The position numbers and the translations under genes were made by a program. 64,000 nucleotides of DNA, from the sequence record SRR31156797_1306. One strand, given 5' to 3'. Shown here piece after piece: positions 3,699-64,000 of the stretch (the stretch's first letter is position 1; each line of letters opens with the position of its first letter). The notes under the pieces are model-generated. The model was not told the DNA's origin. It made no database searches and saw only the letters and a list, made by a program, of their open reading frames with translations.

Positions 3699-6600
3699 TT
3701 ATTTTCTTCGTTTCTCTCTTCTAACCAATTTAATACTCTCGAAGTAATTCATCATTCTTCTTAGCACATCTGCCCATAGTGTAAAGAACAAGAATATTGT
3801 ACCCAGCCAAACAACTGCCAAATTAAACCAATAGGTATCTATATAAACAGGTCCAACTCGTTTTACATGTGAATAAAAGTGAGAACGCCCAAATTTGGAA
3901 TCTGGCGACATAAAAATCGGATCTTTCTTTTGAATCAACTTATAGTCGATTTCTATCATTTTATTCACTTCGGTTCGATTCAAAACCAAATCGGCTAATG
4001 CCTGATTGTGATATTTCTGTTTGAATTCATAAACGCCATCACGTCCTAAGGAATCCACCAAACGAGAATACTCAAAATCTTTTTTATAACCCGATTCGCT
4101 ACTCATTCCCATATAATACAGCTCAACCTGATCCAAAAAACTTTTGGTTTGCTCTACCACATTCAAACTAAAATCATTCATATTCAGCTGCTCTAATTCT
4201 GGGAAAATATCCATCCCAGCATCCTCAGCCAATTTTGTAATTTCGTTTCTTAACATTTCAAAATGAGATCCCGTTTTTTCCACATCTTTCTCAAATTCAA
4301 CACTACGTTCACAATTCAACAATATGGATTCTATTTTAGGTATCAGAAATGAAGTCTTAAAAGATGCATCACTAATGCCTTTCTCATTTTCAAAAAAGTG
4401 TTTTTCGAATTCGTTATTCTTAAACTGCGCCACAGCTAATGCTTCATAAGTCCATCGAGTCGTCATAAAATCGCCTACAATAGGCACATACACCTTGTCG
4501 GTAACCCCATAATGCAAATCATCAAATTTTATCATAGCACCTCCCAACAACAATTGAGGAACCAGTATCAAAGGAATTAAAATATAAATGGTGATTACAG
4601 AATTCAATCCTGCCGATATATTTAAGCCAACCAAATTAGAAAAACATGCGGTTGTAAATAATACGAGCCAATAAGTTAAAGTCATGCCTTCAATTTCGAG
4701 AATAAAATTCCCTAAAATCACAAAAGTGATGGATTGTATGGCTGACAAAACAAACAAAAACATAATTTTAGATGAGAGGTAACTGATCCTGCACAAATTC
4801 AAAAACTTCTCTCGTTGTAGGAGCTTTTTATCACGTATGATTTCCTCGGCACTCACGGTTAACCCCAGAAACATGGATACCACAACAGCCATAAACAGGA
4901 AGACCGGAAAGTTTTTATTCTCACCAAACACATAAGCTCCATTGGTAGTATACTTGGTGAAGTAACCCAATATTATTGCCAAAAGTGGCGCCTCAAACAA
5001 GTTGATAATGAGATACTGCTTATTGGTCAATTTAGAAAGCACATTACGAATCCAGAAAATGGAGAATTGCTTAATTCTTCCCGGAATTTTAAAATCACTT
5101 TGCGGTAATTTTTTATCTGCTCTTAACGGTAAATGATTCGTCTCAATATTGTCTTGATATTTTTCATACCATTCCGATGGTAGCACTCGACGCTCTCTTG
5201 TTGGTTTCCCTTGATCATCAATTAATTTTGTTTCTACAATTTGTAATATCTGATCGGGATTTACATTTCCACAAGTCACACACTCACTCTCAGAAGCATT
5301 TACCTGGGAATTTTGTGTCTTAAAATAAACAATGGCATCGATTGGATTTCCATTGTAGATAGGATATCCACCTCTATCGAGAATCCAAAGCTTATCGAAC
5401 ATTTTAAAGATATCAGATGATGGCTGATGAATATTAGCAACCACCAATTTTCCTTTTAAAGTTTGCTGCTTTAAAAGATTCATTACCATTTCCGAATCCG
5501 TTGATGACAATCCCGAAGTGGGCTCATCAACCAAAAGGATTGCAGGTTCGCGCATTAATTCCAAACCTATATTCAATCTTTTTCGCTGACCTCCACTAAT
5601 GAATTTATTCAGAGGATTTCCAACTTTTAAATCTCGAGCTTCATACAAACCGAGATCCTGAAGCATTTTCAGAACCGTTTTTAAAATCTGAATTTCCGAA
5701 AAATCTTTAAAACAAAGCTTCGCATTGTAGTATAGATTCTGAAACACCGACAGCTCTTCTATCAATAAATCATCCTGAGGAACAAAACCAATTAAGCCCT
5801 GAACAGCAACCCGATTACGATGAATATCAAAATCATTAATTCTAATTTCACCATTATTAAGAGTCAAATTTCCATTCAGCACATTTAGCAAAGTAGATTT
5901 TCCAACTCCACTACCTCCCATAATTCCAATCAGCTGACCACTTTCCTCTGAAATATTGAATTTGTGAATTCCATTATTCGAATTGCGAAACTTGAACTCA
6001 ATATCCTTAGCCGTAAAAATGATTTTCTCTTGTGATTCTTCTTTTAAAAATTGCCCGGCAATATCTGAGTAATAAATTGAACGAATATTGGGCCCCTTAA
6101 TTATAGAACCATTACTCAGTTGATATGTTTTTTCTGAAATAATTTTATTCCCTTCGAGGTAAAGATTCAATTCTCCCTCGTATTTAAATACCAAAAGATT
6201 AACACTTTGGGCGTACATTACTATTATTCGACCATATAAGTTCTCGCAATATAAATGCTTGTAATCCGAATCTACTTTTTTAGGTTCTTTTTTCATAAAC
6301 CAGGAAAGATTATCCGACCACTCAGTAACCTTATTGTCTATTATCAGAAATTTACTTTTATCAAATTCATCCAATGTATCTCCCCAAACAAAAGCCAAAC
6401 AGTTGATAAATTCAGAACGTGGAATCTTAAAGTTTTCTGCAACAATACTAATAAATTCGAACTCGCTTTCACTTACAACTTTATCCTCATAAACAAACTC
6501 CAAAAGGCGCATAAGAACAATTAATCTCTCCTCCTGCACCAATTCAGCCTTAATTTTAGTACAAACTTTAGATGCCTCAGTCAGTGATAAAATATCGGTC

Positions 6601-8099: not shown

Positions 8100-8804
8100 C
8101 TACACAGGATGAATTCTCTGAAAGAATCCCTGTTTGTAATTATTTCCTATAGGTATGGTACCTTTCTCCATGTGCACCATATTTCCTTCTATCGATTTTA
8201 TTTTTGATAACGATACAATGTATGATTTATGAATTCTATAAAACTTTAAAGAGGGCAACAAGCGTTCAATTCCCTTTAAAGATTGATAGGTTACAACATG
8301 CCCTTCATTGGTGTAAATTTTCACATAATCGCCCAACGCTTCAACATATTGAATCGAATCCAGTTTAATATTGATCGTTTTTTTATTCGCTTTTACAAAA
8401 ATATACTCACGTTCGTCTTTTACAGTTTCTGTTGCTTCTGAAGGAGCTTTCATTTTTTCTTCAGCCTTTTGCACAGCTTGTAAAAATCGTTCAAATGAGA
8501 ATGGTTTTTTTAAATAATCCAATACATTTAGCTCATAACTCTCTAGCGCATATTCGGTATAGGCCGTAGTTATAATAACCATTGGTGGATTTTTATATGA
8601 TTTCAGGAAATTAATTCCGCTCAAACGAGGCATGTTAATATCCAAAAAAATCAAATCCATTGGCTCATCTTGAAGCACTTCCATGGCTTCAATAGCATCG
8701 CTACATTTACCCTTAAGTTCTAAATTCGACAATTCAGAGATATACTTTTCCAACACTCTTTGTGCCAGAGGCTCATCGTCAATAATCAAGCACTTCAACT
8801 TCAT
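8100..8804 (-). CDS. LytTR family response regulator
   Basis: REC domain (IIDDE, FLDINMP, TTAY, KP) and LytTR domain (YVEALGDYV, FYRIHKSYIV). Confidence 0.96.
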   Translation of the reverse strand: MKLKCLIIDDEPLAQRVLEKYISELSNLELKGKCSDAIEAMEVLQDEPMDLIFLDINMPRLSGINFLKSYKNPPMVIITTAYTEYALESYELNVLDYLKKPFSFERFLQAVQKAEEKMKAPSEATETVKDEREYIFVKANKKTINIKLDSIQYVEALGDYVKIYTNEGHVVTYQSLKGIERLLPSLKFYRIHKSYIVSLSKIKSIEGNMVHMEKGTIPIGNNYKQGFFQRIHPV

Positions 8805-8834
8805 ATATTTTTATTTTATCTTCTTAAGATAAAC

Positions 8835-9899
8835 TTAAGATAAATCAATTTTTAAAACAACCGTAAATAGATTTTCCTCTTTAGAAATATCCAAACTGTG
8901 TTTTTCCGGATACAATAACTCTAATCTTCGCTTTACATTTTTCAAGCCAATTCCTTTATTTTTTCCATCCTCTGCCTGCCAATTCTCATCATATCTATTC
9001 TGAATCGACAATTCCATACGATCTCTTTCTTCGAAATTAAAAAGAATATCTATAAAACCATTGTTATTTCTCCCATAAGCTCCATGTTTAAATGCATTTT
9101 CAATTAATGGCTCGAACAACAGGGGAGCAATCTTATTTTGAGTTGTATTGCCTTTTACATCAATTTTCACAGGAGTTGCTTCATCCAATCTTATCTTCTG
9201 AAGATCCAGATAATTCCTTACAAAATCCAATTCTTTTTCGAGCAATACATACTTATCGTTACATTCGTATAAAATATACCTCATCATATCAGATAATTTC
9301 AACACTAAATTGGGAGCCTTATCCGATTTATCTAGGGTAAGCGAGTACAAATTGTTTAATGTATTGAATAAAAAATGAGGGTTAATCTGAGATTTTAAAA
9401 CCTTCAGCTCCGCTTCCAATTTCTCCTTTTCAATCTTGTGAACCTTATCCAAAATTTTTTGAAGTACAAACCATTCTCTCATCATCGAAAAAAAGGTGGT
9501 AACACTAACATATATCAATGTGAAAATGGTAAAGTTTATCCAAACAACAAATGTCATTTCTTCAAAAATCTTTTCATTATGCACAAAACTATTGAACGGA
9601 TAAACCAGCAAGAAATCAATCACAAAAGCTGTTAATGAAACAAGACCAAGTACGGATAGAATATAGAGAAAGTACCTTTGCTTTTTAAATAAATATGGAA
9701 ACAGAATCAATAAATTTATGTAAACTGCAGAGGCAAAACACAAGTTAAAAACCAGTGTCATTAGAACTGGTTCTGGTTTTAACACATTCTTAAAATTACT
9801 TGCCACAAACATGGTAAATAAAAACAAGACTATAGCCACAACCCAAAACAGTATATGAGAAATGATCCTACTACTTGATATAGATTTTATGTTATTCAT
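8835..9899 (-). CDS. LytS/YehU-type sensor histidine kinase
   Basis: Four N-terminal TM helices, LKSQINPHFLFNTLN H-box, ENAFKHG, GIGLKNVKRRL. Confidence 0.95.
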   Translation of the reverse strand: MNNIKSISSSRIISHILFWVVAIVLFLFTMFVASNFKNVLKPEPVLMTLVFNLCFASAVYINLLILFPYLFKKQRYFLYILSVLGLVSLTAFVIDFLLVYPFNSFVHNEKIFEEMTFVVWINFTIFTLIYVSVTTFFSMMREWFVLQKILDKVHKIEKEKLEAELKVLKSQINPHFLFNTLNNLYSLTLDKSDKAPNLVLKLSDMMRYILYECNDKYVLLEKELDFVRNYLDLQKIRLDEATPVKIDVKGNTTQNKIAPLLFEPLIENAFKHGAYGRNNNGFIDILFNFEERDRMELSIQNRYDENWQAEDGKNKGIGLKNVKRRLELLYPEKHSLDISKEENLFTVVLKIDLS

Positions 9900-54559: not shown

Positions 54560-55618
54560 TTAATCTTCGTGTGAGAATTTCGGACATGAGATTGCTTTAT
54601 CTCCAAGTTTCTTAACTTTTTGACGACGTTTAAGCTTACGTATTTCTCTTGGATTGGAGTAATTGTAATTGTAGGTTAAAGAGATCTCCAAGCCACCTCG
54701 ATTTGAAGATGCAGTTTGTAAATCGGATACATTAATATCGTAGGAAATTAATACTTTCAAACGCTTTTTTTCGTATCCGAAAACCGGAATAATATCCTGA
54801 GAAAAACGATACCACATACCATAATGCAAGATGGTTCCTTTTTCACCAAATAACATCATTGCATTTGCACCGGCAATCCATTCGTTTGCATCCTTCTCGG
54901 TGGTATGCATAATTTCAGGTTTGATATACATTCTGGAACTAATACGGCTTTCGAAACCTCCATGCCAGGCAAATTTACGCTTTAAGTTATTGGTAATTTC
55001 ATAAAACGATTCGTTGGGCTGATTGATATGACTCACTGCAGTTCCCATAAAATATTTGGTTTTCCCACGAAAATAGGTCATCATCATACCTGCCGAGAAA
55101 TCGGCATAAAATAGCGATTGAGTACCCAATGGTTCACCTGATTGATAATTGGGATCGAATATGGTTCCATCCCACTGATCATCGAAAACAAGCTTATTGT
55201 AATCAACCGACTTATTAACCATTTCAACACCAATTCCGGCGTGCAAGAACAAAGTATTTCCAGCATTTAGACTTTTGTTTAAAGAACCCGCAAACATTAC
55301 CTGTGTGGTTTTTAAACTACCCTCACCCGCTTTATCATTAAATACCATTCCTCCAACTCCAATCCAGGAAGAACTTAGCAACTGTGTTGATAATTTACCA
55401 TCAACAAAAACAGCTTGAGATACAAAAGGTGTCGTAACACTGTTCCATTGGTTACGATAATTCATTCCTCCACGAAGGTTATAATCTGAATTTCCAGTAA
55501 GCGCAGGATTTAACAATAATGGGATAGAATAGAACTGAGAAGAGTGTACACGCTGAGCCGAGAGCTTAAAAACTCCCAATAAAAAAATCGGCAATAAAAT
55601 CAGAATATACTTTCTCAT
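54560..55618 (-). CDS. PorP/SprF family T9SS outer-membrane protein
   Basis: Signal peptide, SQFY..PLLLNPALTG, YRNQW, amphipathic beta-strands, SYD...S.L...GGLEISL, terminal CPKF. Lies next to a type B CTD gene. Confidence 0.92.
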   Translation of the reverse strand: MRKYILILLPIFLLGVFKLSAQRVHSSQFYSIPLLLNPALTGNSDYNLRGGMNYRNQWNSVTTPFVSQAVFVDGKLSTQLLSSSWIGVGGMVFNDKAGEGSLKTTQVMFAGSLNKSLNAGNTLFLHAGIGVEMVNKSVDYNKLVFDDQWDGTIFDPNYQSGEPLGTQSLFYADFSAGMMMTYFRGKTKYFMGTAVSHINQPNESFYEITNNLKRKFAWHGGFESRISSRMYIKPEIMHTTEKDANEWIAGANAMMLFGEKGTILHYGMWYRFSQDIIPVFGYEKKRLKVLISYDINVSDLQTASSNRGGLEISLTYNYNYSNPREIRKLKRRQKVKKLGDKAISCPKFSHED

Positions 55619-55830
55619 AAACACTTTCAAAGGGTTATCCGATTTTCAACATCACGATCAACAAGAAAGATAAAACCCCCAAACAAAAATATGAAAATGG
55701 GTAATATTATTGTATTACCCAAACATAAAATATCTATTTGATATTAAATATAGTCGCCTTTTTTGGCGGTTTAAATATAATTAATCGTATTTAATTTAAA
55801 TATTAAAATATCCTTAATTCATCAAATATC

Positions 55831-58359
55831 TTAGTAGAGTAGTGTAACATTACCTCTTTTCTGCATAGATGCGCCATCAAGTAAGGTCACTTTCAAGAAA
55901 TAAACATATACATCCATGTCCTGCTTCTGTCCACGATAAGTTCCATCCCATCCTACATCCTGACGATTGGATTGGAAAATTTTATGTCCTAATCTGTTGT
56001 AAATAATCAAGCTCATAGAAGCTATATTATTTCCCCTTACAAAAAGAACATCATTCTTTCCATCACCATTTGGAGAGAACCCTGTTGGTAATCCCACAAA
56101 TTGGTCACCTTCCGGATAAGATACATTTACAGTATCTCTTCCCATACAACTTTGTTGATTGGTCACCTCTACCCAGTATTCACCTGCCTGATCGACAATA
56201 ATTTTCTGAGAAATCTCATCATTCGACCAACGATAGAATGAACCATCATTCTGAGCGTCTAATTCCGCTGTTTCACCTGCTGATAAAACCAAATCATCAC
56301 CTAAATCAACAATTGGAGAAGCATTTACAATTAATTCGATACAATCACCTTCAGTATTTCCAAAAGGATCGGTTACTTCTACACAATATTTACCAGTTTG
56401 ATCAACAAAAATACCTTTATCTGTTGATTCTGATGGAATCCAACTATAAGTAGGCTCAGCACTAAATGTACGGTCAATAGTTGGTTCAAGGTATACTCTA
56501 TCACCTTCACAAATTTGAATGTCACCACCTAAATCAACAGAGAATTTATGACCATCTTTTCTTATCACGCTTACTTCATCACTATTGGTACAACCAAATT
56601 CTGATGTCACAAGAACTGAATATACATTCTCATCGCTCACTGTGATCGTTTGTGTTACATCGCCAGTATTCCATTCGTAAGAACCAGTTAAACCTTCTGG
56701 TCCGGCATCTAATGTAGCTGTTTCTCCATCGTACAATACAATATCTTCACCCAAATCAACAATTGGCAATGGATGAACATCTACAAGAATTTCATCCGTT
56801 TTCTCATTTCCAATTCCATCTCTTACAATTACTGAATAGTTTCCTGATTCCGTAACTGTTAAAGTAGATGTATTTGCTCCATTAGACCACAAATAAGTGT
56901 AATCCTGTGTTATTGTAGGATTTGGATTCAATACAATTTCATCACCTTCACAAATATCTTTATCATCACCAAGGTTAATCGCAAATACATCATTAACACT
57001 TGATATTACAATTTCATCACTAGCCGAACATCCATTTGAGTTGGTTACCGTAACACTGTAAGTATTACTTGTACTTACCTGAATGGTTTGAGTAGTTTCT
57101 CCAGTAGACCATTCATAATCGTTACCGGCATTTTGTGCATCAAGTGTAAGAATTTCCCCTTCTGCTAACTGATAGTCATCTCCTAAATCGACAACAGGAG
57201 CTGACCAAACTGTTACATTAACAACGGCTGATGATTGTTTACCCGTATTTTTATCTGTAGCAGTTACAGAATAAATTCCAGTTTCACTTACCGTTAAAGT
57301 TGACCCTACTGATCCGTCAGACCACAAGTAAGAGTAATCACCATCAAAATCGATAACAGGTGTTAGAACTCTTGTTTCTCCAGAACAGAAGGCGATATCA
57401 TCACCTAAACTTACAACAAATGATTCTACCACTTTGATATCAGCATAAATTGTATCTCCAGCACAATCAAATGCACTACGTTCTATCAATTTAATTTTAT
57501 AATCACCTGGTGTATTTCCCCATTGAACATCAAAACTTAGTTCGCTATGGAAGTTATCACTCATTCTTGTGGTACTTTCATTCAATACTGTTGCATCTGC
57601 AGGAACAAAAATTTCATAATTTTCATTCTTCTCAATGGTTGCAGTATATGCCTGAATTGTACCTGCCTGAATAACCGGATTGTAATCGCCAAATACCGTA
57701 TTTGGTAATGCCATCACATCCACCTCTAAGGTTTGATTGGCTAAATCCTCTTCAACCGGAATTCCTGATAATGTTTTGGCTTCAACCAATAAAATTTCCG
57801 CTCTGTGAGTCTTACCTGAAGTATTAGGTATCTCCAATTCAAACTCAAACTTATTGGTATAAATTTCATTCGCACCAGTAGGCATTTCTGCAGGTGCTCT
57901 ATCAACAGAGTATTTAAATGTCCAAGGTTTTGGTCCGGTATAATTTACCGTCACATTAACCATACCATTGGCATCTCCACCATTATTTTGAGCACAAACA
58001 TAAGGCACTTCTAAATCTTCAAATACAGCTGTTGGCGCTGATTCATCAACTATAACTAGCATAGTTAACCCTTCACCAAAACAGTGCGTTCCTAAATCCT
58101 CAGGATACACTTTTACTTCATAAGTTCCAGCGTTTACAAACTGATAATCTCCAGATTCGAATGTTTTAGAAGCCAAATACGCTACAGCACCCGTTGATGT
58201 ATTGGTAACAGACCAATGATACTTGTAAGCTGCATTCTCATCCACTTTAAAATTAAGTGTTGTTCCCTTAACTACATACTGCTGCGACACAGCCGCCAAT
58301 CCTCCTAAAAGGATCAGCAGTGCGCTTAGAAGTGTTTTATGTAGTAAGGTTCTTATCAT
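55831..58359 (-). CDS. T9SS type B CTD cargo with tandem Ig/PKD-like domains
   Basis: Signal peptide, six (V/I)xLGxD repeats, C-terminal PTGFSPNGDGKND...IYNRLG...GWDG...KRGNVTLLY (CHU_C/TIGR04131-type). Confidence 0.93.
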   Translation of the reverse strand: MIRTLLHKTLLSALLILLGGLAAVSQQYVVKGTTLNFKVDENAAYKYHWSVTNTSTGAVAYLASKTFESGDYQFVNAGTYEVKVYPEDLGTHCFGEGLTMLVIVDESAPTAVFEDLEVPYVCAQNNGGDANGMVNVTVNYTGPKPWTFKYSVDRAPAEMPTGANEIYTNKFEFELEIPNTSGKTHRAEILLVEAKTLSGIPVEEDLANQTLEVDVMALPNTVFGDYNPVIQAGTIQAYTATIEKNENYEIFVPADATVLNESTTRMSDNFHSELSFDVQWGNTPGDYKIKLIERSAFDCAGDTIYADIKVVESFVVSLGDDIAFCSGETRVLTPVIDFDGDYSYLWSDGSVGSTLTVSETGIYSVTATDKNTGKQSSAVVNVTVWSAPVVDLGDDYQLAEGEILTLDAQNAGNDYEWSTGETTQTIQVSTSNTYSVTVTNSNGCSASDEIVISSVNDVFAINLGDDKDICEGDEIVLNPNPTITQDYTYLWSNGANTSTLTVTESGNYSVIVRDGIGNEKTDEILVDVHPLPIVDLGEDIVLYDGETATLDAGPEGLTGSYEWNTGDVTQTITVSDENVYSVLVTSEFGCTNSDEVSVIRKDGHKFSVDLGGDIQICEGDRVYLEPTIDRTFSAEPTYSWIPSESTDKGIFVDQTGKYCVEVTDPFGNTEGDCIELIVNASPIVDLGDDLVLSAGETAELDAQNDGSFYRWSNDEISQKIIVDQAGEYWVEVTNQQSCMGRDTVNVSYPEGDQFVGLPTGFSPNGDGKNDVLFVRGNNIASMSLIIYNRLGHKIFQSNRQDVGWDGTYRGQKQDMDVYVYFLKVTLLDGASMQKRGNVTLLY

Positions 58360-58371
58360 TTATTTAAACGT

Positions 58372-59046
58372 TTAGTTTAATGTTAGATTCGTAATAACTG
58401 GTTTAGGATATACTACGATATTTTTATCGTCATCAGTAGCATTTACAACAACATCATCAGCCGATTTTGCTGAGTTAATTACAACTTTCCAATTCTGAAC
58501 TGTTGATTCATTATTAACAAATGTATGAGCTACATCAATAGTATGATCCCCATTTATATCTGCAACTTCGATATTATCAAAACCTGGAACTACAACATCG
58601 TTGTTATCCATAATTGAGTAAGTCAAAGTCCATGGTTGTGCACCGGTATAAGTTACGATAACTGGTGTGCTTCCATTATCAGCAATGGTTGTAGCGGCTG
58701 AACAAACCCCAAGTACATCACCTGCATCAGCAAATTCAACAGTTGGTGTACCCAACACTTTCACTCTTTGCTCAAACGGTTCACTCTTACAACCATTTAC
58801 ATCAGTTGTAACTACACTTATTGTGTACATATCAGCAACCGTTGGCCAAGTAAACGTAATTGCGCTTGTTGTTTCTGCAATAGCTACAGTTGTTCCGCCA
58901 TCGCCTACAACTGTCCATGCAAACGTACTTCCGTGCGTATGAACCGCTGTTAAATTTTGACTTGTTCCACCTGTTACTTCTGTTTGAGCATTTGCAAGCC
59001 CAATAAAAGTAAAGGCAAAAATGAGTAATGATAGTATTTTTTTCAT
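58372..59046 (-). CDS. Secreted two-domain Ig-like protein (array member 1)
   Basis: Signal peptide ANA-Q, NGC and GVC cysteines, YTGAQPW shared with the cargo N-terminus, tail VYPKPVITNLTLN. Confidence 0.85.
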   Translation of the reverse strand: MKKILSLLIFAFTFIGLANAQTEVTGGTSQNLTAVHTHGSTFAWTVVGDGGTTVAIAETTSAITFTWPTVADMYTISVVTTDVNGCKSEPFEQRVKVLGTPTVEFADAGDVLGVCSAATTIADNGSTPVIVTYTGAQPWTLTYSIMDNNDVVVPGFDNIEVADINGDHTIDVAHTFVNNESTVQNWKVVINSAKSADDVVVNATDDDKNIVVYPKPVITNLTLN

Positions 59047-59067
59047 AGTACTATAATTTAGTTTCTA

Positions 59068-59829
59068 CTAAAACTGAATATCGTCAACAGTTGGAAGTGC
59101 ATGAGAAGTTCTTGTATGAATATGTGTTGTCTCATCCAAATCCTTTTCCACACCAGTACCATTTTTAGCTTTAAACAAACGAATTACATAATTTTGTTCT
59201 GCTAATGGATTAAGGTCAATTAAATCAATATTAGGTATTGTGATAAAATAACTTCCATCTTCCTGTGTTGTACTTACGGATAACTCAACAGCTTCAGCTT
59301 CAACAAGGCTATTTACCGTATACCACACACTAACAGCTTTACCAGCTTCATGAACTAGACCTAAACCGCTTAAAGTAACCGGAATTTTCACATTATCACC
59401 AGTTAAATTAACAGAACAATCATCTGAAACATTAGATGCAAATACAACATCCATATCATTAGTAGCTTTAAGAATTACATGCAAAATTTTAAAGTTAGGA
59501 CAGCCATCAACCTTACTGGTTTTTGTAAGCTTTAGATAGTAATCCTTATCTGCTACAGGTGAAGGACCATCCCAAGTGATACTAACAGAAGCCGTATTCT
59601 TTGCCCCATTGAAAGTTACCTCTCCACCAGCTTCATTACCAGGTGTACAGTCTTCATCTGTATATACTTCCCATTCAAAATCAAAATTTGCATCTGGTGT
59701 AACATCATAAACATTCGTCGATCCTGCATAAACTGTTTGTGTTGTAGCCATCGTAACTCCAACTTCCTGTGCCATTGTACTGCTCAAGAAACCAAAACAG
59801 ATTGTAAGTAATAGTATAAGTTTTTTCAT
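59068..59829 (-). CDS. Secreted two-domain Ig-like protein (array member 2)
   Basis: Signal peptide TMA-Q, VYAGSTNVY, SITW, DGC, DDC, tail HALPTVDDIQF. Confidence 0.85.
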   Translation of the reverse strand: MKKLILLLTICFGFLSSTMAQEVGVTMATTQTVYAGSTNVYDVTPDANFDFEWEVYTDEDCTPGNEAGGEVTFNGAKNTASVSITWDGPSPVADKDYYLKLTKTSKVDGCPNFKILHVILKATNDMDVVFASNVSDDCSVNLTGDNVKIPVTLSGLGLVHEAGKAVSVWYTVNSLVEAEAVELSVSTTQEDGSYFITIPNIDLIDLNPLAEQNYVIRLFKAKNGTGVEKDLDETTHIHTRTSHALPTVDDIQF

Positions 59830-59853
59830 GTCGTATAATTATTTATTGTTTTT

Positions 59854-60576
59854 TTAATAGTTTATATCATCAACGATAGGAATACCATACAGTGTTCTTG
59901 TATGAATATTTACTCCTCCTGTTAGTGTCACTTTTATATCTCCTCCGTACTTGTCCTTAGCAGAGAGGATGGTAATTATTTGGTTTTTATCTGTATGTTC
60001 TGGTATAATGGCAAGATCATTAAAAACTAAACTCTTGCTCTCTGTTACAGTTATTGGAGTTGCCTCAGGCGCACCATCAATACTGTAGTAGACTTGTATT
60101 GGATAAAATTTACTATCAACTATCCCACTCGTCTCAATTGTTACTTCTGTCTCAAACGTATTTCCTACATTCGAACAATCATTCGATGCCAATTCTTTAA
60201 ATTCAATCGTGGCACTTTCGATCACTTCTATTGCAAATGCTCTTCTTGTTGAACATCCACCCAAACCATCATTGAATTCCTCAACGATTAAATAATATTT
60301 ACCAGGTTTCTCCCAGGTAATATCAACATTTGCCGCATTGTCAATTCCATCCTTAAACGTGAATTCGTCGGCTGCAGCAGGATTTGCATCTTTCTGATCT
60401 GCAAAATCCAACACCTTGTAAATTTTCCATTCACATGCATTACCAGCATGCAAGGCTAAAGTTGCCTTATGAGTACTCCCATGCAAAAACACAGCATCCT
60501 GTGCACTCGCTGTTGCAAGCACAAACACTCCTAATATGAGCGTAAGCAGAATTCTATGGATGAGAGATTTTTTCAA
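59854..60576 (-). CDS. Secreted two-domain Ig-like protein (array member 3, TTG start)
   Basis: Signal peptide ASA-Q, HGSTH, DITW, GGCSTRR, NDC, tail YGIPIVDDINY. Confidence 0.85.
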   Translation of the reverse strand: MKKSLIHRILLTLILGVFVLATASAQDAVFLHGSTHKATLALHAGNACEWKIYKVLDFADQKDANPAAADEFTFKDGIDNAANVDITWEKPGKYYLIVEEFNDGLGGCSTRRAFAIEVIESATIEFKELASNDCSNVGNTFETEVTIETSGIVDSKFYPIQVYYSIDGAPEATPITVTESKSLVFNDLAIIPEHTDKNQIITILSAKDKYGGDIKVTLTGGVNIHTRTLYGIPIVDDINY

Positions 60577-60618
60577 TTAATTGTATTTAAATTCTAAAAT
60601 TCTTGTTTGACTTTTATA

Positions 60619-60643
60619 ACCTTCCCGACAATGTCGGGAAGGT
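60619..60643. promoter_or_regulatory. Perfect intergenic hairpin inside the array
   Basis: ACCTTCCCGACA-A-TGTCGGGAAGGT. No U tract follows on the coding (minus) strand. Confidence 0.7.
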
Positions 60644-60674
60644 ATTTTTAGCCTTATAATTTATTCTTTAAGAA

Positions 60675-61742
60675 TTAATCAACAGATATTATCATTTGAG
60701 TATCTGGCGAAGCCTTTATTACAAAATCTGTTGCCTCTTTATTGCCAGTAACATTATTGAATGTTTCAAACTGATCTGCAGAAGCAGTTGTTATGTAGGC
60801 TGTAGTATTGCCAGTTGTTACACCTGAATTTTTCTCACTAAGGTTAAACGTGATATCAGCATCAGTACTTGTTCCTAATACATTTTGGAAAGTAACTTTC
60901 AAATAAGCTACAGGATTACCTGTATTCACAGTAATTTTACCAGTTCCAGTATCTGAAGTTCCAGCTGAACCTCCACCTATCGCATCAAGTACTTCTATTG
61001 CTAAATCAGTTCCATTCGCATTGGTCAAATTATAATCAAATCCCCAAGCTCCATTCCATGGTTGAGTTCCAGTCTTCATACTAATTTGATAGTAAACGGA
61101 TGTAGTTCCAAGCGCTGCTTTCTTCGCTGTAGCATCTAAACCATTAGCAAGAATACTACCTGAGAAAGAATTACATGTTGCTAAACTTTGATCTGCAGCA
61201 CCAGTATAAACTACATTATCCTCAGGATTAATCGCAGCAAGAATAAAGTCAACACCCCCTGAAGTTACTGAAACAAAGTACCTTCTTCTTGCAGAACAAA
61301 AGGTTGCGTCAGCTCCATTATATTCTTCCACTTCAACCGCATAAACACCAGCATCAGGAGTATCCAACCATTGTACACCAATAGAATGAGCACTCTGTGC
61401 AGAATATTCTCCAGCCGTACCTAAATTCCCACCAGGAAATTTAGTTGCAAAATCAGCTCCCCCTGGAGCATAATTCACAAATTGAAATTTAGTAAAATCT
61501 GTTAATAGAGTACTAGTACCTCCACTAACAGTAAAAACTCGCCATGTGTAATAAGTATTTTCATGTCCTGTAATTGGAGTATTTGCACCATCCAAGTTTA
61601 CTTTAAAACCATGAAAAGAACCTACTGAATGATCAATAGCATTCGCCTCTGTTGATCCATCATTTGTACCAATAGCCATTACTGCATTGGTAGAAAGCAT
61701 TATGCAAAAGCACAATCCGATTGACATTAATATTTTTTTCAT
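60675..61742 (-). CDS. Secreted two-domain Ig-like protein (array member 4, longest)
   Basis: ATG at 61742 (MKKILMSIG), VGSFHGF, YTW, VQW, VEEY..TFCSARRR, ATCNS, tail IKASPDTQMIISVD. Confidence 0.85.
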   Translation of the reverse strand: MKKILMSIGLCFCIMLSTNAVMAIGTNDGSTEANAIDHSVGSFHGFKVNLDGANTPITGHENTYYTWRVFTVSGGTSTLLTDFTKFQFVNYAPGGADFATKFPGGNLGTAGEYSAQSAHSIGVQWLDTPDAGVYAVEVEEYNGADATFCSARRRYFVSVTSGGVDFILAAINPEDNVVYTGAADQSLATCNSFSGSILANGLDATAKKAALGTTSVYYQISMKTGTQPWNGAWGFDYNLTNANGTDLAIEVLDAIGGGSAGTSDTGTGKITVNTGNPVAYLKVTFQNVLGTSTDADITFNLSEKNSGVTTGNTTAYITTASADQFETFNNVTGNKEATDFVIKASPDTQMIISVD

Positions 61743-61778
61743 AAGGCTATATATTATTTTATTAAGCATTAACTAATT

Positions 61779-62660
61779 TTAATTTGTTTGAATCTCAGTT
61801 GTTGTTGGCACTGACCAAACAATAGAAGTTGCTGTTCCTGCAAATTCTGCCCCACCTGCTTCTTCTGACTCAAGGGTTCCGTAAAGAACATCTTCACCAG
61901 CATCAATATTAAATGTAATAGTTACATCTTCGTCAATCCAAAGATTAGTCACAGATGCTGTAGCATTAACTGTAGTAACACCAGTTGGAACAATTATATA
62001 TCCATCTCCATCTACAGTTAATGTATGATCCGTACCATCATTATACTTATAAGTAGCATTTACAGTAGCAGTTTTATCGGCAGAAACAACCGGCTTAAAC
62101 TTCCAACTATTAACTGTACCTGTCATGGTAATGTTGAAATCTCTTGGAGTAGAACCCAACTGAGCGGCATCTGGAGTATTACCTGTAAATAAAGTACCTG
62201 AAGCTGTATTACAACCATCAGCTGTAACAGCAGCAATCTGAATATCGAATGCATTAGGAATTACATCAATTTGAATTCTTCGCTTACTAATACAACGATT
62301 TGCAGAGTATTCTTCAACAAATAAATAGTATGTTTTTCCACTCGCTGCTGCATTCCAAGTTATATTAATCCTGAACAAATTAGCAACATCAGTACTTTTA
62401 TCCCAAGCATTATCTGCATTATCAACCTTTGTTACAGCATAATCACCATCGGTAGCCGCTATATCTCCAGCTTCATTTGTTGCTAAATACCATTTATAAG
62501 TATTACCCACATGTACTGCTTCTTGAGTAGCTCCATTATCTGCAGAGTTCACAAAATAAATATGAGTACCTCCAACGTATGGATTTGTTCCTGATTGGGC
62601 AAACACATTAATTCCTACAACCAGAAATAAAACAGTTATTATCCCTTTTAATAATTTCAT
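61779..62660 (-). CDS. Secreted two-domain Ig-like protein (array member 5)
   Basis: Signal peptide VFA-Q, PYVGGTHIY, YKW, NITW, VEEY..NRCISKRR, DGCNT, tail VWSVPTTTEIQTN. Confidence 0.85.
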   Translation of the reverse strand: MKLLKGIITVLFLVVGINVFAQSGTNPYVGGTHIYFVNSADNGATQEAVHVGNTYKWYLATNEAGDIAATDGDYAVTKVDNADNAWDKSTDVANLFRINITWNAAASGKTYYLFVEEYSANRCISKRRIQIDVIPNAFDIQIAAVTADGCNTASGTLFTGNTPDAAQLGSTPRDFNITMTGTVNSWKFKPVVSADKTATVNATYKYNDGTDHTLTVDGDGYIIVPTGVTTVNATASVTNLWIDEDVTITFNIDAGEDVLYGTLESEEAGGAEFAGTATSIVWSVPTTTEIQTN

Positions 62661-62682
62661 AATATTTAATTTTTACTAGTTA

Positions 62683-63498
62683 CTAATTAAAACGAATATT
62701 CGATGTATTCGGAAGTGCATCAATTGTAAGCATTTGCTCTTTATTTCCAGTTCCATTATCTGGAGTAACAATTGAACCTATTTTGGCTTTACCATCTGAA
62801 ATTTCTAATGTTACACTTTGAGCTATTGCAACAGGTCCCGATAATTCAACTTCAATCGTCACACTTTTTTTATTTCCTGGAATCGAAATCCCATTGTAAT
62901 CGGTAACTCCACTAACTCCATTCACTGTTACATTATCAATTGAATAATCTACACTTGTTTTTGCTAGAGTAAAATCAAACTCCCAAGTATCAACTGGTAA
63001 AGCATATGTTACATCATCGAGGGTAACAGTAAATTGAACTGTTGTTGTTGCAGAAGCACCTTGAGCTAAAATATGGTTATCTTCATCATGACATTCATTA
63101 GCATTATCACCTGCTATTAAGAAGAAAGTATTACCCTTAACTGTAATATCCGCCGATCTTACAGAGATACAACCGCCAGCTGGTTTTGATTCCTTAAATT
63201 GAATCGTAAAATTAGGATTACCATCAGGACTAATAGAAGCCCAATCTTTATTCCAGGTAATAACCAGCTTTGCTTCATTTCCAACTTTTGTTTCAGCCAT
63301 AAAGACAGTAGGTTGAGAAGTTAAAGCAACCCCTGATGCATCAGCAACTATCCAAGATGCTGTATTATTTGTCCCATCTTCCATGGTAACCAAATATGTT
63401 TGCTGAGAGTTTTGATATGGATTTTGTGCATCCTGAGCAAATAGATTACTCGTCAAACCAATCAAAGTGGCAATAAGTACAATCTTAAATATTTTCAT
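62683..63498 (-). CDS. Secreted two-domain Ig-like protein (array member 6)
   Basis: Signal peptide LFA-Q, PYQNSQQTY, VITW, GGCISVR, NECHD, TWEFDF, tail IDALPNTSNIRFN. Confidence 0.85.
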   Translation of the reverse strand: MKIFKIVLIATLIGLTSNLFAQDAQNPYQNSQQTYLVTMEDGTNNTASWIVADASGVALTSQPTVFMAETKVGNEAKLVITWNKDWASISPDGNPNFTIQFKESKPAGGCISVRSADITVKGNTFFLIAGDNANECHDEDNHILAQGASATTTVQFTVTLDDVTYALPVDTWEFDFTLAKTSVDYSIDNVTVNGVSGVTDYNGISIPGNKKSVTIEVELSGPVAIAQSVTLEISDGKAKIGSIVTPDNGTGNKEQMLTIDALPNTSNIRFN

Positions 63499-63526
63499 GA
63501 TATATAGTTTTGTCGTTTTCAGTCAA

Positions 63527-64000
63527 TTAAAAAGTAATACCAGACGCAGCAGGTAGAGCTTTAACTATAGTAGAAGCAGTGTTCGTATTAGTGTCAGGAG
63601 TACCTTCAGCAGTTTTAGTTACACCATTTACGGCAAAAGCTTCTGATAATACAAGCTCTACTGTAACCTGTTCGTTCGCATTACCTGTAACATCAACTTC
63701 AATAGTACGTGTATCACCAACAGAAACACCCAAATCTGCATATTTTCCACCTGATTCAGTAAGAGTACTAGCTCCGATTCGCACTGCAGAAACTGAAGGA
63801 GAACCAGCTCCGGTAAGGTTTACTGCGAATTTATACTCCCATGTATCTATTGTCCATGCAGCATCCTTAGTCATACTAACGTCAAATGTCACAGTTGTAG
63901 TTGCATTATCATTCAAATTAGAAACCAAGTCATGCAATGCATTACATTGAGTTGAATTTCCTTCTGCAATTGTTACATCGAAAGAATTATTGGTCTTATA
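63527..64000 (-). CDS. Array member 7, 5' end outside window
   Basis: The frame is open to base 64000: YKTNNSFDVTIAEGNSTQCNALHD...TWEYKF... with tail VKALPAASGITF. Confidence 0.85.
   Translation of the reverse strand, partial: YKTNNSFDVTIAEGNSTQCNALHDLVSNLNDNATTTVTFDVSMTKDAAWTIDTWEYKFAVNLTGAGSPSVSAVRIGASTLTESGGKYADLGVSVGDTRTIEVDVTGNANEQVTVELVLSEAFAVNGVTKTAEGTPDTNTNTASTIVKALPAASGITF

Follow-up and report, generated by a model that had tools for sequence, protein, structure and literature searches.

A gene row of marine Bacteroidota that seems to encode a cell-surface fibre of small immunoglobulin-like proteins with a type IX secretion protein as its base

The 64,000-nucleotide stretch of sequence record SRR31156797_1306, referred to here as the window, ends in a tight row of genes on the minus strand. 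According to the list of open reading frames (ORFs), this row contains genes for seven small secreted proteins (subunits A to G), then a gene for a larger protein (the anchor), and then a gene for an outer-membrane protein of the PorP/SprF family (Table 1). It seems that this marine Bacteroidota operon builds a cell-surface fibre from the small proteins, with a type IX secretion system (T9SS) protein as its base. Subunits A to G are paralogous two-domain proteins encoded from 58372 to beyond 64000, with A cut by the window end (its full-length orthologue, of 269 amino acids (aa), lies at 5492-6301 of the related locus L003), and the gaps between their genes measure 9-98 bases. Each has a signal peptide without a lipobox, with no Cys after the signal peptides, and none reached the cut-off of any family in Pfam (scanned at E<=1) or NCBIfam. 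Mutual identity is 15-30%; A, B and C are closely related to one another and their tails are similar, and the first ~217 residues of the anchor also align with the subunits, G being the closest. Contigs from four RNA libraries, belonging to three marine-sediment studies, cover parts of the locus, which is a weak sign of transcription; no meaning attaches to the stretches that these contigs leave uncovered.

Table 1. Genes and features of the locus, numbered along the window.
Feature	Position	Strand	Size or residues	Remarks
Subunit A, 3' part only	63527..64000	(-)		window ends inside gene; tail from Pro 63530-63553 (PAASGITF)
Subunit B	62683..63498	(-)	271 aa	signal peptide, mature N-terminal Gln, two immunoglobulin (Ig)-like domains; tail 62686-62712 (PNTSNIRFN)
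Subunit C	61779..62660	(-)	293 aa	tail 61782-61808 (PTTTEIQTN)
Subunit D	60675..61769	(-)	364 aa	longer N-terminal segment; tail 60678-60707 (PDTQMIISVD)
Subunit E	59854..60576	(-)	240 aa	tail 59857-59880 (PIVDDINY)
Subunit F	59068..59829	(-)	253 aa	tail 59071-59094 (PTVDDIQF)
Subunit G	58372..59046	(-)	224 aa	paralogue closest to anchor N-terminal module; tail 58375-58401 (PVITNLTLN)
Anchor	55831..58359	(-)	842 aa	CHU_C/TIGR04131 scans; subunit alignment; complex prediction
Anchor N-terminal subunit-like two-domain module	57709-58284	(-)	residues 26-217	paralogue alignment
Anchor joined tail-plus-next-domain motif	57646-57717	(-)		translation VMALPNTVFGDYNPVIQAGTIQAY
Anchor type B T9SS sorting domain	55846-56091	(-)	residues ~757-838	CHU_C, TIGR04131
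PorP/SprF-family outer-membrane protein	54560..55630	(-)		PF11751 E 3.6e-43, TIGR03519 1.5e-57; 200 bases downstream of anchor

The feature that links the subunits most clearly is their C-terminal tail. A preliminary description, made from the letters of the window, had held that all seven end 7-9 residues after a conserved Pro, and this is borne out: all the C-termini that it quoted are present in the ORFs, with 7 residues after the Pro in A, E and F, 8 in B, C and G, and 9 in D. The N-terminal motifs that it listed (among them VYAGSTNVY, PYVGGTHIY, PYQNSQQTY, FLHGSTH and, in the anchor, VVKGTTLNF) were likewise all found. A search of 1.84 billion representatives with a profile of the paralogues gave 528 matching proteins at E<=1e-3, of which 213 passed <=1e-10 and 13 passed <=1e-30; the 150 listed of these 528 matches are mostly 230-310 aa long and aligned through the final residue. 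In the family alignment A4, which has 125 rows and a mean column identity of 15%, the tail Pro occurs in 124 rows and is the third best conserved position, Ile at Pro+5 is found in 90% of rows (eighth best), and the chain ends 7-9 residues past the Pro in 118 of 124 cases (4, 5, 10, 10, 12 and 37 residues in the other six). Seven orthologues of F, at 56-98% identity, have L245, P246, T247 and I251 invariant. A crude regular expression for the tail also matched three unrelated ORFs of the window, and the evidence is therefore the aligned conservation and not the expression; judged on the aligned sequences, the tail pattern greatly exceeds what chance would give. Gln occupies the position of the first mature residue in 98% of the 125 sequences, fitting the habit of N-terminal pyroglutamate in Bacteroidota. 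Two Cys exceed the tail Pro in conservation, being invariant (125/125 rows). One lies near the end of domain 1 and the other early in domain 2 (C89 and C115 of mature B), and the two are probably linked in an inter-domain disulfide, by which the domains would be fixed relative to each other.

Some tails, such as LPNTS in the window and LPNTG, LPDTG and LPQTG in relatives, resemble LPxTG, and Thr is found at Pro+2 in 63% of A4 rows. The tail could therefore be taken for a sortase-like transpeptidation motif, (L/I/V)PxT(S/G), through which covalent bonds would link the subunits as they do in the pili of Gram-positive bacteria. This explanation is hardly credible, because only 4-6 residues follow the Thr, with neither the hydrophobic segment nor the charged end that would stand after the motif in sortase-assembled pili, and because the best conserved tail residue after the Pro, the Ile at +5, would fall in the leaving group. 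Moreover, no PF04203 match was detected in the related 5.9-Mb metagenome-assembled genome G002, in a search for which control genomes gave matches.

It was also proposed in the preliminary description that the tail is strand A of the next Ig domain, and motif spacing in covalent tandem arrays supports this. Homologues of subunit domain 1 recur as covalent tandem repeats inside proteins of 1000-4200 aa, where the motif P.{3,4}[ILV] precedes 14 of 14 repeats in P0009, 14 of 15 in P0026 and 13 of 14 in P0149. In P0009 and P0026 it stands 16-19 residues before profile position 39, with more scattered positions in P0149. For the separate chains of the window, junction length was defined as the residues after the tail Pro plus those from the next mature Gln to profile position 39, with cleavage sites taken from the conserved Ala-Gln. 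It amounts to 17-20 residues at five of the seven junctions and to 26-29 at those into D and F, which are longer because both proteins carry extra N-terminal residues. Since the spacing at the split junctions matches that of the covalent arrays, the boundary between polypeptides would fall within a domain, behind its first strand, and next to nothing would have been lost or gained. The wording 'circularly permuted', used earlier for these proteins, is loose in this respect: the chain boundary is rather offset by one strand relative to the domain boundary. The anchor contains the uncut form, as had been claimed from the translation of its joined motif (Table 1). There, ALPNTVFGDY-NPVIQAGTIQAY parallels a tail followed by the mature N-terminus of C, QSGT-NPYVGGTHIY, and further Ig/PKD-like repeats come after the joined motif. 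Natural fusions of two modules (P0022, P0035) also retain the tail between the modules.

Structure prediction agrees with a domain 1 that is open and a tail that can fill it. In the AlphaFold2 model of B, run with the family alignment (predicted local distance difference test score (pLDDT) 93.3, predicted template modelling score (pTM) 0.85), domain 1 consists of six strands, beginning with one at residues 11-17. Domain 2 starts with N-terminal strands of its own (106-108 and 112-115) and comes to an end at 233-239, and no strand is formed in cis by the tail (240-250). As far as this model goes, the open domain 1 anticipated for the subunits is present. In most of them the first strand begins 9-11 residues past the predicted signal cleavage. 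A seven-stranded Ig sandwich without strand A leaves a two-stranded B-E sheet, and by general Ig topology this sheet of domain 1 would be the open groove. The pairing itself was modelled with ESMFold2, without family alignments, from mature G and an anchor fragment (residues 26-217) that stops short of the anchor's own Pro. Three runs gave interface scores (ipSAE) of 0.71, 0.69 and 0.68, against 0.00 for the best control; of 78 solved complexes 51 attained the mark, as did 2 of 108 mismatched pairs. Contact agreement between runs was at least 96% and partner pLDDT at least 83. On the side of G, the predicted interface comprises residues 193-204 (the tail, in mature numbering) and 95-103, and on the side of the anchor residues 2, 10-15, 17, 19-20, 22, 43-45, 57-63 and 66-75, these anchor residues all belonging to domain 1. 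Tail Leu201, at the conserved Ile/Leu position, contacts anchor residues 12-14, 57, 59 and 73-75, while anchor residue 14 touches G 198-201, residue 12 touches 201-203 and residue 10 touches 203. By these contacts, the predicted tail and the first strand of anchor domain 1 are antiparallel, in the manner of strands A and B. Insertion of a tail in trans, which had been expected for these proteins, is in this sense seen in the prediction for G and the anchor module.

A tail that matches the inter-domain junction of covalent arrays, and that is ordered in the B model without a partner (pLDDT ~93), might also be a relic of gene fission. It would then be the linker and first strand of a lost domain of a multi-domain adhesin, with no present role, and the subunits would be independent soluble or periplasmic Ig-like proteins. 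A useless remnant should decay, yet Pro is kept at 99%, Ile at 90% and the post-Pro length of 7-9 residues in 118/124 sequences; the tail docks on anchor domain 1 in the prediction, and the loci share a gene order that includes anchor and PorP/SprF. A relic is therefore quite improbable.

The anchor is assigned to the T9SS by its C-terminus, which matches both CHU_C (E 1e-15; 58 bits, cut-off 27) and TIGR04131 (49 bits, cut-off 35). CHU_C was found in all seven anchors scanned, that of the window and six of six from other loci, and a PorP/SprF gene adjoining the anchor was confirmed in the window, L001, L016 and L019. In L018, the gene after the CHU_C anchor (8520-9239) encodes a 239-aa OMP_b-brl_2 beta-barrel and not PorP/SprF. 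The 2.9 kb directly downstream of the anchor gene in L020 (5659-8555) contain no N, and within them there is no ORF of at least 120 aa, no stop-to-stop frame above 98 aa and no tblastn trace of PorP/SprF. In two reports, type B cargo is described as bound, shuttled and anchored by the neighbouring PorP/SprF protein (PMC9143113, PMC12618676). By analogy with this description, the PorP/SprF protein of the window is presumed to serve the type B sorting domain as its cognate shuttle and as its anchor at the surface, so that the 842-aa anchor would be the cell-bound end of the structure. SprA is present in the related genome G002. The earlier suggestion that the chain ends on the anchor fits well with these assignments, as a protein whose C-terminus is a type B sorting domain could act as acceptor only.

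The subunits have no sorting domain, and it may be that they leave the cell attached to the anchor via the T9SS. Alternatively, a T9SS component, PorP/SprF or another outer-membrane factor could recognise the tail as a short signal for export or sorting, and each subunit would be exported or displayed singly. Although no T9SS sorting domain is found in the subunits or in the candidate tip proteins described below, their lectin, HYR and Ig domains suggest an extracellular location, and the tail is the only C-terminal feature that they have in common. Known T9SS signals, however, are folded domains of ~80 residues, like that of the anchor, and the tail matches strand A of a covalent domain in both sequence and spacing and is placed in domain 1 by the prediction. 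An export signal is thus an unlikely explanation of the tail, and it could in any case coexist with strand donation.

Related loci add the proteins that may form the distal end. Narrower alignments yielded three genome loci and a single metagenome locus, and the gene order recurs in nine loci, including L001, L002, L003, L016 and L018-L021, with two to seven subunits per locus (layout in L001, L016 and L018-L021). L003 is syntenic with the window (F 89% identical) and has, upstream of A, a secreted protein of 801 aa with three HYR domains and an F5/8-C domain but no sorting domain, which ends in a subunit-type tail (...KPNPNPSEITF); before it lies another large protein, with the tail-like end QPKPVGIFFQLNP. 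In G002 (loci L002/L017), adhesin-like proteins of 966, 883, 486 and 1181 aa are followed by five subunits, the anchor and PorP/SprF. Among the domains of these four large proteins are C-type lectin, LamG (in L002), F5/8-C and HYR, and each of the four has a tail with Ile at Pro+5; the N-termini of the tip candidates in G002 gave no match to the family profile at E<=1e-3. The lectin/HYR proteins therefore appear to donate only. Further large adhesin-like proteins are encoded upstream of the tip gene (L002 2-742 and 1580-3040; L017 13084-15984 and 16810-19461; L003 3-2315). They have a second flavour of tail, P.P.GI[FY].., with the same spacing from Pro to Ile, and one of them has a C-type lectin domain; they may be alternative heads on the same stalk.

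Taken together, these data probably describe a non-covalently concatenated, 'split' T9SS adhesin fibre, whose pieces are rejoined by C-terminal strand donation. The locus would encode, in effect, a giant multi-Ig T9SS adhesin divided into separate polypeptides. Each subunit would reach the periplasm through its Sec signal peptide and start, once mature, at the conserved Gln, with a domain 1 that is short of its edge strand A. The missing strand would be supplied by the 8-10 residue tail that follows domain 2 (Pro, four residues, Ile/Leu and two to four more), which would pair in antiparallel fashion with the first strand of the next chain's domain 1 and bury its Ile/Leu in the core. Joining would thus be donor-strand complementation from the C-terminus. 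Subunits would both donate and accept, the anchor would accept only because its own C-terminus is the sorting domain, and the anchor would consequently be the base, with the PorP/SprF protein encoded next to it holding it at the surface. The upstream lectin/HYR proteins of related loci, having a tail only, would be the distal adhesive heads. In the simplest idea of export, chains without sorting domains would assemble on the anchor and pass the translocon together with it. The support for strand donation is all computational, namely the conservation of the motif, the equivalence of the tail to strand A, one prediction of a tail in a groove, and the recurrent gene order.

The order C-D-E-F-G-anchor and the tail type of each member are kept between the window and L002 (F 57% identical), which hints that the chain may follow gene order, from tip through A to G to anchor. 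In G002 the family is confined to a single locus, with one copy per type and no obvious major subunit. Of the head-to-tail assembly put forward earlier, strand complementation is supported by the G-anchor prediction and the array spacing; the homopolymer 'ladders' are not, because one pair was modelled, and a hetero-chain fits better. It is also conceivable, though less probable, that strand donation is real while its product is not ordered in single file, being either a homopolymer shaft of few subunit types or a set of heads that compete for few grooves and give short, heterogeneous assemblies. The excess of tails over grooves in G002 (9 to 6), the close relationship and similar tails of A, B and C, the variable number of two to seven subunits per locus, and a complex prediction that cannot tell which family member binds are all compatible with such assemblies. 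The conserved order and tail types between the window and L002, as well as the single copies at a single locus in G002, argue against them, but not decisively.

Several points weigh against strand donation into an ordered fibre. The complex prediction covers one pair, G with the anchor module, and 7 of 44 blindly drawn pairs of neighbouring genes also passed the mark; in addition, the score is the model's own confidence, and a pass cannot discriminate between family members as binders. The tail of B has a pLDDT of ~93 in the monomer model, ordered without a partner, which means that AlphaFold2 puts it somewhere definite, and when free it may pack in cis on domain 2. In the model of the fusion P0022 (pLDDT 84.8), the internal tail is ordered (~93) and is assigned as strand by DSSP at 298-299 only, and the free terminal tail has a pLDDT of 43-64. 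Given the conflict between these values for free tails, ~93 in B against 43-64 in P0022, the pLDDT of a free tail decides nothing. Subunits F (59068-59829; EVGVTMAT...) and D (60675-61769) have 6-9 extra residues before the first strand, and these could fill the protein's own groove until displaced. No PapD-like chaperone or usher was among the 23 proteins scanned (9 of the window, 4 upstream in L002/L003 and 10 of other loci), a scan limited to the loci and not extended to the rest of the genome. To our knowledge, there is no known route through the T9SS for proteins without a sorting domain. Finally, a one-to-one chain leaves proteins unaccounted for in G002, where tails outnumber grooves 9 to 6, so that alternative heads or some homopolymerisation are likely.

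Donor-strand complementation is known from chaperone-usher pili and from type V pili. Chaperone-usher pili (type 1, P and CFA/I) are linear fibres of defined order, tipped by an adhesin, in which each Ig-like subunit is short of one edge strand and obtains it from the subunit that follows. The strand that these subunits lack is the C-terminal G strand, and an N-terminal extension takes its place; here the polarity is reversed, with a C-terminal donor and the first strand missing. Foldseek searches against the PDB gave generic tandem-Ig matches only, with TM scores of 0.18-0.36, and among these were donor-strand fusions of CfaB at ranks 24 and 49. The type V pili (FimA/Mfa1) of Porphyromonas gingivalis are alike in belonging to the same phylum and in having a C-terminal donor strand, a base anchor and tips. 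As described in one source, the C-terminal donor strand of type V pilins fills the groove of the neighbour, a dedicated base anchor and accessory tip proteins complete the pilus, and the pilins are lipoprotein precursors, cut by signal peptidase II, from which Arg-gingipain removes an N-terminal segment to open the groove (PMC8512630). Here, a C-terminal donor strand is found in silico, as the tail of G (193-204) on domain 1 of the anchor. Subunits A to G differ from type V pilins in having no lipobox and no Cys at +1, the first mature residue being Gln in 98%, and the groove is predicted to open upon removal of the signal peptide. The extra N-terminal residues of D and F, if they fill the groove, would resemble the prosegment of type V pilins. 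The anchor, moreover, is T9SS type B cargo with PorP/SprF and not a lipoprotein pilin. The seven subunits matched none of the FimA/Mfa fimbrillin families (Pfam scan at E<=1) and had no sequence relative in the PDB at E<=0.1, and a profile search of the PDB gave nothing below E 0.3. The locus works like type V and chaperone-usher pili but fails defining features of both. It also has components in common with giant T9SS type B adhesins of the SprB type, anchored by SprF, which share the type B sorting domain, the adjacent PorP/SprF gene and tandem repeats homologous to domain 1. These adhesins are single polypeptides, in contrast to the chain described here, which is cut into up to nine or more genes, with the cuts placed after strand A and not between domains.

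No description of a T9SS-linked donor-strand fibre was found in the literature searched, with subscription papers and supplements outside the search. Only tentatively can the locus be put forward as an undescribed class of Gram-negative filament, in which up to eight or more Ig-like proteins would form a heteropolymer of genetically fixed order by C-terminal donation of strand A, with no chaperone, usher, protease or sortase, and would be assembled in the periplasm and pulled through the T9SS by the single sorting domain of the base. Such a filament would be the first case in which proteins without sorting domains ride the T9SS, and its adhesive heads could be swapped on a common stalk. If strand donation is real, this would be a third, unrelated donor-strand family, opposite in polarity to chaperone-usher pili and tied to the T9SS, and the principle would have arisen once more when a tandem-Ig adhesin was cut with an offset of one strand. 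It would also raise the question of whether the T9SS can export cargo without a sorting domain as a passenger bound non-covalently. At least 528 cluster representatives, which now lack annotation, would gain a function as a family, and short, genetically encoded pairs of tail and groove would become available for building ordered protein chains.

The distribution of the family is patchy. In a sample of the phylum, with G002 as the search centre and up to 8 candidates scored per genome, 9 of 301 genomes matched at E<=1e-8; free-standing subunits were present only in G002, the other eight having domain-1-like matches inside giant proteins. A sample of the order gave 9 of 201 genomes at E<=1e-15. 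Matches in the ESM Atlas were only to 'hypothetical protein' clusters of Bacteroidota. The natural two-module fusions form a subfamily of their own (P0022, P0032, P0036, P0045, P0053, P0056 and others; ~555-620 aa), the free end of which has a different tail, MPQ.G.LAGV[DE], and one member comes from the isolate genome of Roseimarinus sediminis.

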